Positions 7,272 through 46,867 of a stretch of DNA of 64,000 nt are shown one piece after another. Each line of letters starts with the position of its first letter. Position 1 is the stretch's first letter. A program made the translations under genes and the position numbers. The DNA is from an uncultured delta proteobacterium. Its GTDB lineage: Bacteria; Desulfobacterota; Syntrophorhabdia; Syntrophorhabdales; WCHB1-27. The DNA lies in NCBI GenBank assembly GCA_963810935.1, contig CAWEPK010000010.1, positions 1 to 64,000 of the forward strand. Direction: 5' to 3'. The notes beneath the pieces are model-generated. The model was given only the letters and a program-made list of their open reading frames with translations, had not been told where the DNA came from and did no database searches.

Positions 7272-7913
7272 TTACGACCCCTCGTAGTTTCCTTCCAGGT
7301 AATAATCACAAACGTCTTTCAGCGAGCAGCGAGGGCAATCCGGCTTTTTCGCCCTGCAGATGTACCTGCCGTGGAGGATCGTGAGGAGCGAGAACGCCGT
7401 CCATTGCGCTTCCGGCACGATCTTTTTCAGGTCCTCCTCTATCCGCTCCGGCCGCTTGTTTTTCGTAAGGCCGATGCGGCCGCTCACCCTCGCAACGTGT
7501 GTATCTACGATGATTGCAGGCTTGCCGTAGGCAAGGCCCACAATCATGTTGGCCGACTTGCGCCCTATGCCTTTTACCGTAGCGAGCGTATCGATGTCGT
7601 CGGGGACCCGCCCGCCGAACCTCTCCCCGATCTCGCCCGCTATGTTCTTGAGGCTGCGCGCCTTGTTATGGTAAAAGCCCGTCTCCTTAATGTCCTCTTC
7701 CAGCTCCGGCACAGGTGCGTTGATATAGTCCTGCGCCTTCTTATACTTTTTGAAGAGGCGCTCAGTCACGCGGTTGACGCGCTCGTCGGTGCACTGGGCG
7801 GAGAGGACGGTAGCGACGGTCAGCTCAAGCGGGTTCGACCAGTTAAGCTCTACACGGGGTTTGCCGTGCATGGCTTTCAGCCGCTTTATAATGGCGTTAA
7901 TCTCTTTTGCCAT
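7272..7913 (-). CDS. nth: Endonuclease III
   Basis: LSAQCTD, HhH GIGRKSA, VDTHV, 4Fe-4S motif C-x6-C-x2-C-x5-C. Confidence 0.95.
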   Translation of the reverse strand: MAKEINAIIKRLKAMHGKPRVELNWSNPLELTVATVLSAQCTDERVNRVTERLFKKYKKAQDYINAPVPELEEDIKETGFYHNKARSLKNIAGEIGERFGGRVPDDIDTLATVKGIGRKSANMIVGLAYGKPAIIVDTHVARVSGRIGLTKNKRPERIEEDLKKIVPEAQWTAFSLLTILHGRYICRAKKPDCPRCSLKDVCDYYLEGNYEGS

Positions 7914-9631
7914 TTCTCACCTCGCTGAATAGGTCTTTCATCCCTTTGGCGTCCCTGGTGTTGGCTACATCATTTGCCGTGAGCCAGCCTTTTCTTGCAA
8001 TCCCTATCCCGTAGAAAAGCTCCGCCAGCCCGGCCGCATGGTGGGCATCCGGGTCGATGGAAATAGCGACGCCCTTCGCCGCCGCCTCGGGCAGGTACCG
8101 CCAGTCGATATCAAGGCGGTACGGGCTCGCGTTCAGCTCGATAACAACGTGAAGGCGCGCCGCTTCCTCTAAGATGCGCGACATGTCCACCTTGTAGCCG
8201 TCCCTGGCCAGAAGGAGCCTTCCCGTAGGATGGCCGAGGATTGTCGTGTAGGGGTTCTCCATAGCCTTCACGATGCGTGCTTCCATCTCTTCCTGACCCA
8301 TCGAGAAGCCCGAACGTACGGACGCCACTACGAAGTCGAAGCCTTCGAGCAGCTCGTCGTCGTAGTCGAGGCTCCCGTCGGCCAGTATGTCGCTTTCTAT
8401 GCCCTTGAAGAAGGTGAAGCCTTCATTTTCCGCGTTGAACTCGTCGATCGCTTCCCACTGCCTCAGCACGTCGTCAGGCTTCAGGCCCCCTGCGTAATAT
8501 GCGCTTTTCGAATGGTCGCAGATGCCGACGTAAGAGAGGTCGAGGTTGCGCGCGGCGTCGCAGATGGCGCGCAGGTCGGACGAGCCGTCGCTCATGCTCG
8601 TGTGCACGTGGAGCGTGCCTTTAAGGTCGGCCGTCTCGACAAGGCGGGGCAGCGTTCCCGATGCTGCGGCCGCGATCTCGCCCCTGTCCTCGCGCAGCTC
8701 CGGGGGGACGTAGGAGAGCCCGAGGAACTCATAGATGTCCACCTCCGCTGCGACTAAAGGGCCGGCCTGCCTGCCAGATTTGGAGAGGCCCTGCTCGTTC
8801 GGGACAAAGCCTTTTCGTTCTGCCGGCTCGCAGAGGCGCGACGTGTGGGCGGCGCTCCCTGTAAAATAAAGGACGGCGAAAGGGAAGGAACGCGCCTCCA
8901 CGACGGTCATGCGCGCCTCTACCCCCGTTACGAGCATGCAGGCGATGCGCCCGCCGTACCCTGTCCGCACCTCTTCTATTTCCGGAAAGGAGGCCAGGTG
9001 GGCCGATATCTCCGCCGGGTCGCCTCCGCCGACTACGATATCGACGTTTCTCACTACCTCTTTCTTGCGCCTTATGCTGCCGCAGGCTTCAACGAGGCCG
9101 CCCGGCACAATCCGGCCGAGGCGCTCTTTAAGCCTCATCGCCAGGGGATAGACGTCCACAAAAAGGTGTTCTCCCTTGTGGCGCCTCAGGAATTCGATGC
9201 CCTTGACGATCCTTTCCTGCGTCTTGGCGCCGAAGCGGAAAAGGCTGACGAGGCGGTTCTCCTTGCAGGCGTACTCCAGCTCTCCCAGGGAAGAGACGCC
9301 CAGTTTCTCGAACAGGAGCCTTATCTTGCCCGGCCCGAGGTTGGGTACCTGCAGCAGACTCCAGGAGCGTAGGCGGGATCTTCCTCGCCAGCTCCTCGTA
9401 AAAGGCCATCCTGCCCGTATCGTGATATTCGGTGATGTTGGCGGAAAGGGTCGCCCCGATGCCTTTGATCGTCTTTAGGCGCCCTTCCATTATGAGTGAA
9501 TCGAGGTCATCGAGGCCCGCGACCACCTTCGCCGCGTTGTGGTAGGCTTTTGCTCTGAAGGGGTTTTCTCCTTCGATCTCCAGCAGGGCCGCGATCTCCT
9601 CCAGAATGGCTGGAAGCGATCTGAGCTGCAT
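7897..9631 (-). pseudogene. polX: DNA polymerase X / PHP exonuclease, split by one +1 frameshift near 9360 (possibly a sequencing error)
   Basis: N-terminal GENPFRAKAY and IKGIG in 9128..9631; removing one base at GAG-T-CTG continues LLQVPNLGPGK...IVKGIEFL in frame into 7897..9159, which has GSIRR, YFTGS, PPELRE and PHP motifs HVHT, CDHS, GHPTGR, DAH. Confidence 0.85.
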
Positions 9632-9740
9632 CAGTTATTATCATACAGGGGGCGAAAAGATGTCAATAAAGCAATAACCCATTTTGAGTCTCAAAACGGG
9701 TTATTGCTTGCCGGCAGGGCCGCCCCGAGGCGGCGGCAGG

Positions 9741-10586
9741 TTAGTAGTACCTCCCGTTCGCTTCCTCGCCGATGATGGCGAAGTTTGCTTTTGACGTCGC
9801 TAACGGGTCGGATTTCCATGAGAAGCCTATCGAGGGTACCTCGACTGCTGCTTCGAGTTGGGCTGTCGCCTTGAAGCCCTCGATCCGGAACTGCTTTGCC
9901 GGGTCGGCGTATGAAATCTTCTCGCCTGTCGCTTTCCAGACTATCGTTATGTCCATCCTGGCGGGTGTTGTCTGTGCCTGGAATGCAGGCCACGCAGGCT
10001 GGTCTATTATTCCTATGCCTTTCATTTGAAGGATCGCGGTCTTTCCGTCATCGCTCCAGGTGATTCCGCCTTCCGGCACCGGTACTACCCAGTAAAGACC
10101 GCAGAATCCCACCGGGGGATGAAAGTCGTGCATCTGATTGGCCGGGGCAACCTGCCCCTTGAAAAGGGTGAGTCACAGGTGGGCGAAGGTCCCCTTGCGG
10201 GCTGCGCGGCCGGTGAAATACCCGCCTTGCATGAAAGAATTGTCGGTGGTCGGGCTTCCGAAGGGGATGCGGTTCCCTTTATTGTCCGTCCCCATGCCCG
10301 TAAAGTCGCTGCACCTGGCGACCTTCCCCTTGAAATGATAGATGCTGGAAGGCTCGTTGCCCGGCCCGGCCGGCTGATTATGACTGCCGTTCTTGTCAAG
10401 CCACGGGATGGGATAGGGGTACGTGCTGCCGTCGTACACGAATTGGCCTGACCCTTCCGAGGCAGCCGCAGCCTTTGCCGACCCGGGCAAAGATAGAGCG
10501 GATGATAGGGCGAGGGCCAGCCCCGAAGCAAGGAAACCGCGTCTGCCGCAAGCGGGCATCGCGGGCGAATCTCTCCCTGAATCCAT
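9741..10586 (-). CDS. Putative Tat-exported selenoprotein, 281 aa, Sec candidate at codon 138 (TGA at 10173-10175)
   Basis: RRGFL twin-arginine signal with AKA cleavage site; TGA followed by 13 sense codons (LTLFKGQVAPANQ) in frame with the 9741..10133 ORF; SECIS-like hairpin directly 3' of the TGA. Confidence 0.7.
10144..10175 (-). promoter_or_regulatory. Candidate bacterial SECIS element
   Basis: mRNA UGA-CUCACCCUUUUCAA-GGGGCA-GGU-UGCCCC; G-containing apical loop 21-23 nt after UGA; GCAGGUUGC resembles the E. coli fdhF SECIS apex GCAGGUCUGC. Confidence 0.65.
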
Positions 10587-10722
10587 GGGTACCTCCTGCT
10601 CGATTATGGTTTGTCCCTGTGAAACTTAAGTCCCTGTCCGCCCGTTCGCAATGACCGCCGCGATCATGGCGTGAAATGGAGAGATCTGTCCGGGAAGCCG
10701 GATGCCGTGTGGCAGGTAAGTG

Positions 10723-10796
10723 CGCGCCCGGCAGGATTTGAACCTGCGGCCTTCGGCTCCGGAGGCCGACGCTCTATCCAGCTGAGCCACGGGCGC
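10723..10796 (-). tRNA. tRNA-Arg(CCG), CCA not encoded
   Basis: GCGCCCG/CGGGCGC acceptor stem, D-arm GCTCAGCTGGATAGAGC, anticodon loop CTCCGGA, T-loop GGTTCAAATCC. Confidence 0.97.
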
Positions 10797-46141: not shown

Positions 46142-46867
46142 TCACGCCCTGGCGGCTTTGGCCTGGTTCCTCTCACCTATGCGCATAAGAATGATGCCTA
46201 TCTCATAGAGGAGATAGAGGGGCACGGCGAGGAGCGACATGTTGTAGACGTCCGGCGTGGGCGTGATCACGCTCGCAGCGACAACTATTATCAGGACAGC
46301 GTAACGCCTGGTCTTCGACAGCTTTTTTGAAGTGACTACGCCCAGCTTCCCCAGCACGAGCAGTATGATGGGCAGCTCGAAGGCGGCGCCGAAGGCAAAG
46401 ACCATTGTGATGCAAAAGTGGACGAACCGTTCCGTGGATATCGTCGCCTTGAGGACGCCCCCCTGATAGCTCAGCAGGAAGCCGATGCCGGAAGGCAGCA
46501 CTATGAGATAACAGAAAACGCTCCCGACATAGAAAAGGAGCGCAGCGAAGACAACGTAGAGGTAGCCGTGGAGGAGCTTTTCCCGGAGCATCTCGCGGAA
46601 CTCGCGCCATATGAGGAAGACGATGATGGGTGTTGCGAAGAAAAGGCCCGTATAAATCGCCATCTCGACGGACGAGAAAAAGACCTCCGAAAGGTTGAAA
46701 TAGTAGAGAGTGACGTGCACGTGCCGGGTTAGTAAGATTATGAGTTTCTTCGAGAAGATAAAGCTGGCGGCGCTGAAGCACGCAGCCACGAGCAGGCCCC
46801 TGAAAACGACGCGCCTCGCTCCGTAAAGTATGCGGAAAATCTTCTCCCTGTCTATTTTAGGCAGCAT
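46142..46867 (-). CDS. tatC: Twin-arginine translocase subunit TatC
   Basis: FELP, RRYA, ITPTPD, LYEIGI. Confidence 0.9.
   Translation of the reverse strand: MLPKIDREKIFRILYGARRVVFRGLLVAACFSAASFIFSKKLIILLTRHVHVTLYYFNLSEVFFSSVEMAIYTGLFFATPIIVFLIWREFREMLREKLLHGYLYVVFAALLFYVGSVFCYLIVLPSGIGFLLSYQGGVLKATISTERFVHFCITMVFAFGAAFELPIILLVLGKLGVVTSKKLSKTRRYAVLIIVVAASVITPTPDVYNMSLLAVPLYLLYEIGIILMRIGERNQAKAARA

Follow-up and report, generated by a model that had tools for sequence, protein, structure and literature searches.

Bacterial selenoproteins and the locus under study

In the selenocysteine (Sec)-containing formate dehydrogenases FdhF and FdnG, the in-frame UGA has, no more than about 20 nucleotides (nt) downstream, a short hairpin with a small apical loop that begins G-G/U, and production of the protein depends on selA, selB, selC and selD. 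The hairpin is a selenocysteine insertion sequence (SECIS); it recruits SelB carrying Sec-tRNA(Sec). Periplasmic formate dehydrogenases are, in addition, substrates of the twin-arginine translocation (Tat) pathway. The locus examined here has the same layout. It lies on the minus strand of the first 64,000 nucleotides of contig CAWEPK010000010.1, a stretch referred to below as the window, from an uncultured delta proteobacterium (Desulfobacterota; Syntrophorhabdales). Two open reading frames (ORFs) that might each pass for a hypothetical protein form, in all likelihood, a single gene, 10586..9741, encoding a 281-residue predicted selenoprotein that is probably exported by Tat. The recoding mechanism is ordinary in kind; the protein family is new and, as far as tested, uncatalogued.

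Beyond this layout, the protein differs from FdhF and FdnG in several respects. It has no molybdopterin domain or other known domain, it is modelled as an all-β barrel, and in place of UHxP the motif around Sec (U) is H-[IL]-U-L-T-L-F or F-[IV]-U-L-D-L-[YF]. It also differs from the redox selenoproteins of thioredoxin fold, both in its all-β model and in having no UxxC or CxxU motif. Literature searches found no description of a Tat-exported barrel selenoprotein, although this does not prove that no such protein has been published.

Described families are gathered in a 2026 catalogue of 119 prokaryotic selenoprotein families and subfamilies, each with a domain identifier (PMC13188914, Table 1). 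BSepDB collects previously reported families only. The deep-Sep families are reported with Cys homologues, and that method may itself miss selenoproteins that have none; in the present family Cys forms are almost absent. The first-pass annotation of the window had suggested that the family may be undescribed, and this holds as far as tested: no Pfam or NCBIfam model matches it, and none of the 119 families fits as far as such models can test (PMC13188914). A few catalogue rows with CDD or PANTHER identifiers only (TlpA-like, CopZ, BtuF, Prx-like, Fe-S oxidoreductase) were compared by name, and these names do not suggest a β-barrel. Like the present protein, the families listed there as 'hypothetical' (DG, DW, DF; GOS_B, GOS_C) are defined by sequence, have no assigned function, and combine a conserved TGA with a SECIS-like hairpin; unlike it, they have NCBIfam models, none of which it matches.

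A single coding frame across an in-frame TGA

The two ORFs, 10586..10173 (137 aa) and 10133..9741 (130 aa), share one frame on the minus strand, and a TGA at 10175..10173 plus 13 sense codons is all that parts them. With TGA read as U, the joined frame (9741..10586; ATG 10586..10584, stop 9743..9741) consists of 281 codons and a TAA, and reads ...GTFAHL-U-LTLFKGQVAPANQMHDFHPP... around the predicted Sec codon, residue 138 (10173..10175). The common frame, the 13 codons and the joined length had all been pointed out before, and the strand and the list of ORFs bear them out.

Protein databases already mark this position. A word-indexed search returned 150 relatives; among the best 120, 91 end exactly at query residue 136/137, their own C-terminus, and 14 span the Sec column, with W in nine, G in two and poor alignment in three. 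So many separate gene calls halting at one column pointed to a common in-frame stop. A profile search of 1.84 billion representatives, with a threshold of E <= 0.001, gave 614 proteins. The 150 of these that were listed are again mostly halves, ending or starting at the Sec column, and a few more distant full-length database proteins have W, C, S or E there.

The corresponding DNA contains full-length homologues with one in-frame TGA. Among the genomes of 60 relatives, nine besides the window's own have a match, with exactly one in-frame TGA wherever the column is covered. In species-representative genomes, 244 related stretches were confirmed by scanning; the best 80, together with 10 loci from the relatives' genomes, make up a set of 90 loci, 85 of them distinct across the surrounding 75 nt, and the aligned codon is TGA in all 90 (90/90). 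A distant subfamily from soil metagenomes (subfamily 2), with about 30% identity to the window protein and the motif F-[IV]-U-L-D-L-[YF], was used to scan metagenome contigs. This confirmed 341 related stretches, and TGA is found in every one of the 80 that were kept (80/80). Neither TAA nor TAG occurs at the column among the 90 + 80 loci. Five of 400 genomes sampled in the phylum of genome G061 also have a match, each with exactly one TGA.

It could be argued that the TGA arose by nonsense mutation or by faulty assembly, and that the locus is a pseudogene or a miscalled gene; split genes do occur in this assembly, the adjacent family-X polymerase being in two overlapping frames and selB in three. 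Against this stands the recurrence of the TGA at one column in both sets of loci, across many lineages. Moreover, an assembly error at the TGA is excluded, because contigs that the same study assembled from three further samples (runs X2-X4) cover 10173..10175 with 0 differences. The DNA beyond the TGA also evolves as coding sequence would. In a codon-threaded alignment of the 90 loci, pairwise differences at codon positions 1, 2 and 3 are 0.214, 0.158 and 0.576 downstream of the TGA (139 ungapped columns), and 0.144, 0.109 and 0.526 upstream of it (53 columns). Judged by this comparison, the downstream half is under purifying selection, and a dead or miscalled gene is hardly credible.

The other way to dispense with recoding is to assume two independent small genes, one for a 137-aa exported protein and one for a 130-aa cytoplasmic protein. 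Both ORFs are open under table 11, the second starts with ATG, and public gene calls mostly list the halves apart. That ATG (Met152 of the joined protein), however, is Ile or Val in relatives, so the start codon of the second ORF is not conserved, while the 13-codon linker between the ORFs is kept as protein (L-T-L-F-x-G). In the AlphaFold2 model described below, both halves are predicted to form one barrel. There is next to no chance that the two ORFs are separate genes.

One locus of the set, L029:4001-4810 from a metagenome-assembled genome (MAG) of Nitrospirota, has an extra in-frame TAG at codon 34, within the signal-peptide part; its row was left out of the protein alignments.

The SECIS-type hairpin

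Downstream of the TGA, the minus strand carries the hairpin GGGGCA-GGU-UGCCCC that the first-pass annotation had picked out. It begins 14 nt after the TGA (10158..10144); a stem of 6 bp carries a loop of 3 nt beginning GG, at nt 21-23. When the 46 nt from the UGA onwards are folded, this hairpin is the structure of lowest energy (-10.9 kcal/mol). The bacterial SECIS (bSECIS) model specifies 3-9 nt for the apical loop and 4-16 bp for the stem, a G within the first two loop positions, and a UGA-to-loop distance of 16-37 nt with a minimum free energy <= -7.5 kcal/mol (PMC13188914). The window hairpin lies within all four constraints of the model, with its 6-bp stem, its GGU loop, 20 nt from UGA to loop and -9.5 kcal/mol. 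The three structural constraints are satisfied in 167/170 loci and the energy limit too in 136/170; with other in-frame codons of the same genes as control anchors, 1655/33487 (4.9%) pass.

The stem has also been kept through compensatory changes. In an 85-row alignment, it is paired in 92.2% of cells, versus 38-62% if the 3' arm is shifted along the alignment. Pair 30:38 occurs as AU (35), GC (32), GU (6) and UA (2), and pair 32:36 as AU (42) and CG (29). The observed covariation score is attained in 0/500 shuffles, a type of test that is inflated by the relatedness of the sequences. Read in frame, the covarying pairs tie a synonymous third position of Gly to a second position of Ala/Val, and likewise a second position of Gln/Pro to a synonymous third position. 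As these alignments present it, the covariation is a constraint on the RNA, not on the protein.

Selenocysteine machinery and alternative readings of the UGA

The genome to which the window belongs contains selA (568.6 bits) and two copies of selD, one of them with an in-frame TGA. ARAGORN predicts three tRNA-Sec (G000 C4:30323-30418, C6:4921-5016 and C11:126660-126755). Three on three contigs is an unusual number; the assembly comprises 4.06 Mb, with an estimated contamination of 7%. In the order sample, selA is found in 57/61 genomes, so its presence is not discriminating there. It is also above cut-off in 5/5 carrier genomes of other lineages.

Database translations that run across the Sec column have W in 13 proteins and G in two. 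Taken at face value, these would favour decoding of the UGA as Trp or Gly, whether through a suppressor, a variant code or leaky termination, rather than Sec insertion; the Sec assignment at residue 138 is, after all, a prediction from sequence. For the distant subfamily, W at this column corresponds to TGA read under another table, because the DNA of that subfamily has TGA in 80/80 loci. Furthermore, hosts carry selA, selD and tRNA-Sec, a covarying SECIS-type hairpin stands at the canonical distance, and selA reads without internal stops in the related genomes of the 61-genome sample, which argues against a code in which TGA is a sense codon. Read-through to anything other than Sec thus appears very improbable.

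As for annotation practice, the gene calls of one source (P0002-P0011, P0124, P0183, P0205, P0236) read the TGA as Trp, apparently since another genetic code was chosen for short contigs. Other sources stop the protein at the Sec column and name the halves 'hypothetical protein'.

Export signal, conserved residues and predicted fold

The predicted twin-arginine signal peptide covers residues 1-39 (10470..10586, minus strand). The N-terminus has GRRGFL, with the RR codons at 10544..10539, then a hydrophobic stretch and AKA (GRRGFLASGLALALSSALSLPGSAKA). The RRGFL and AKA elements are present as first described; the pair of arginines is conserved across the family (0.95-0.96 in both subfamilies), and the AKA cleavage site is putative. 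The Pfam TAT_signal model matched 1/13 diverse members. The window does contain a tatC, as had been stated: the gene at 46205..46825 (minus strand) scores 151.8 bits on Pfam TatC and 129.1 bits on NCBIfam tatC, slightly below the cut-off of 132.7. A second gene of the TatC family is on the same contig (G000 C10:278622-279272), with 215.3 bits on NCBIfam tatC. In subfamily 2 (loci L105-L184), a conserved H-F-W-E/Q-R-A precedes the RR motif by about 8 codons; the n-region of the signal peptide is therefore itself conserved in this subfamily.

No Cys lies within three residues of U138 (context AHL-U-LTL) and hence there is no UxxC or CxxU motif, in agreement with the original reading of the sequence. 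Residues conserved across both subfamilies (147 distinct sequences) include H69, D115, M119, Y123, U138 (100%), Q151 and H153, and further D154, W166, D195, W217, S259 and N277. Subfamily 1 alone conserves H136, C92, H84 and H156.

Known domains give no match. The joined protein and both halves, compared with Pfam-A and NCBIfam release 20, matched 0 families at E <= 1, save for a chance Kunitz match (E 0.18). A Pfam scan of the 13 diverse members at E <= 10 returned only TAT_signal (one member) and OST_IS (E 0.24), and a profile search of the sequences in the Protein Data Bank (PDB) only a titin fragment (E 1.8). In ESM Atlas, the features of the Ser-form homologue P0122 hint weakly at CrtC and DUF2804, at 0.86-0.87 and below threshold.

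With 67 rows from both subfamilies, AlphaFold2 gave a model with a predicted local distance difference test (pLDDT) of 87.1 and a predicted template modelling score (pTM) of 0.79. Residues 51-281 are confident and the fold is all-β, with long strands from residue 85; the joined protein is predicted as one barrel made from both halves. This model supersedes a run with subfamily 1 alone (pLDDT 72.8, residues 1-79 unmodelled). By the strand boundaries of the model, D115 would have cross-strand partners in U138 on one side and in residues 153-155 on the other, with C92 one strand further out.

Foldseek found no match to either model in the PDB at E <= 0.001. VIA-align, run against 48,161 chains, gave best Z values of 9.2 and 9.1 for the two models, to generic small barrels: porin III (Z 9.1), NspA (8.8), CghA (8.5), Fsa2 (8.4), OmpW (8.3) and AttH (7.3), where Z 8-9 is a range that the aligner itself calls common for unrelated chains. 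The predicted structure is thus that of a selenoprotein barrel without a specific structural relative. It resembles the small meander β-barrels, both those of the outer membrane (NspA/OmpW/OmpX) and the soluble ones of calycin-like type (AttH/CrtC, CghA/Fsa2, YceI), in being an antiparallel barrel (Z 9.1-7.3 over 118-141 aligned residues), and differs from them in having no sequence relation, no Foldseek match at that threshold, and Z values within the range of unrelated barrels. None of these barrels is known to be a selenoprotein.

As regards function only, these scores raise the alternative of an outer-membrane protein of the NspA/OmpW/OmpX type in place of a soluble periplasmic enzyme. Structural scores are highest for small outer-membrane barrels (porin III, NspA, OmpW), the barrel has long strands, and the protein ends in aromatic residues (..GRYY). 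Outer-membrane barrels, however, as far as is known use the general secretory route (Sec in the export sense), whereas the twin-arginine signal is conserved here. Z values of 8-9 are common among unrelated barrels, and the soluble barrels CghA, Fsa2 and AttH score nearly alike. An outer-membrane location is accordingly rated as unlikely.

Surroundings of the gene and distribution of the family

A Shine-Dalgarno-like AGGAGG (10592..10597, minus strand, read directly from the sequence) lies 5 nt upstream of the ATG, and a tRNA-Arg(CCG) is encoded just upstream of the gene, at 10722..10796. On the other side, folding reveals a terminator-like hairpin 31 nt past the stop codon (9669..9709, minus strand), with a 19-bp stem followed by UUUAUU. 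It has an energy of -25.7 kcal/mol (z -7.15; 0/200 shuffles equally stable) and is not listed by a consensus-based scan. A promoter-like TTGACA-18-GATAAT at 9666..9637 belongs to the next gene downstream. Flanked in this way by terminator-like hairpin, promoter-like site and tRNA, the selenoprotein gene looks monocistronic. The downstream neighbour is a family-X DNA polymerase with HHH_8, DNA_pol_B_thumb and PHP domains (7897..9631, minus strand), which is broken up into two ORFs that overlap but differ in frame (9631..9128 and 9159..7897), the result of either a frameshift or an assembly indel.

Across 80 loci the genes nearby are heterogeneous, and the only recurrent neighbour encodes a protein of DUF302 type, in many cases as a fusion with DUF202, which adjoins the gene in 12 (among them L037, L066, L071, L072, L077, L087, L092, L093 and L098).

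The family is patchy in its distribution. It occurs in 6/21 genomes of the window's own taxonomic family, in 3/34 genomes of another, and in 1/400 other genomes sampled across the window's phylum. The best 80 of the 244 genome stretches all come from MAGs; Acidobacteriota are in the majority, the others being Nitrospirota, Syntrophorhabdales/Syntrophaceae/Desulfomonilaceae and Verrucomicrobiota, with one Dormibacterota and one 'Betaproteobacteria'. The family is large and made up of two subfamilies, and its carriers are uncultured bacteria of soil and peat from several phyla.

Weight of the evidence

The selenoprotein reading put forward in the first-pass annotation is supported by the TGA in 90/90 and 80/80 loci, by the SECIS-type hairpin, and by selA, selD and tRNA-Sec in the host. 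The follow-up that it had proposed came out largely in its favour. Relatives are contiguous across the TGA and never have TAA or TAG in its place, the hairpin is conserved, contigs from other samples read TGA at 10173-10175, and structure prediction gives a confident all-β barrel for the joined halves. It had also named a host without selA, selB, selC and selD as a ground for rejection. Here the outcome is mixed, with selA, selD and tRNA-Sec found and selB present but in three frames.

This last point is one of several that weigh against a functional, Sec-decoding enzyme. The only selB candidate (G000 C5:224288-226169, locus L002) is in three pieces in three frames, with 194, 106 and 43 bits. 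It could reflect assembly indels or a broken gene; assembly indels are plausible because the neighbouring family-X polymerase is split too, and selB is intact in 4/4 related carrier genomes. On the RNA side, the hairpin alone is no stabler than shuffled sequence (z +0.95 and +0.60), and RNAalifold on the 85-row alignment returns no consensus structure and no pairs, so that the significance of the hairpin rests on comparison with relatives and not on folding energy. The usual support from Cys homologues is nearly missing, the single Cys form, P0240, being a protein database entry only. In rare full-length relatives, again database proteins only, the Sec position is occupied by Ser (P0122), Glu (P0123) or Gly (P0008, P0017), and these could not perform Sec chemistry. 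Sec at residue 138 is a prediction from sequence comparison, and the putative active site is placed by DSSP strand boundaries, not by coordinates. Finally, no gene family is common to more than 12 of the 80 loci, and neither a conserved neighbour, a family match nor a structural relative points to a function.

The scarcity of non-Sec forms probably explains how the family escaped searches that depend on Cys homologues. The near-total lack of Cys forms also suggests a chemistry to which a thiol is ill suited.

Proposed mechanism and significance

The sequence of events that these features imply is as follows. The ribosome would read the UGA at codon 138 as Sec, with the hairpin 14 nt downstream, within the coding sequence, acting as a bacterial SECIS and recruiting SelB with Sec-tRNA(Sec). 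Because of its twin-arginine signal, the product probably folds in the cytoplasm and is then exported to the periplasm by Tat. Its mature part is predicted to be an all-β meander barrel, with Sec138 near one strand end, flanked on the neighbouring strands by Asp115 and His153/Asp154, which are invariant throughout the family.

On this model, Sec138, Asp115 and His153/Asp154 might tentatively be regarded as a selenol-based active site, or as a metal or ligand site, inside the barrel or at its mouth. In the first of two possible arrangements, Sec138 would coordinate a metal or cofactor that the protein takes up ahead of export, in analogy to the Mo/W and Ni selenoenzymes that travel by Tat. In the second, a Sec-His-Asp catalytic centre would operate in the periplasm of these bacteria from soil and peat. 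Still speculatively, the family could be one of Sec-obligate, Tat-exported β-barrels that carry out a selenium-dependent chemistry not yet described.

The predicted family adds to the known selenoproteins one that is widespread and yet uncatalogued as far as found. It is unusual in its predicted non-thioredoxin, all-β fold, in its probable export by Tat, and in the almost exceptionless retention of Sec, which suggests a reaction where sulfur fails. It exposes a systematic annotation error, in which the halves are entered as separate hypothetical proteins or the TGA is translated as Trp. It also reveals what search methods overlook when they require Cys homologues. For the organisms concerned, it offers a concrete target for studying the role of selenium in the periplasm of anoxic soil bacteria.
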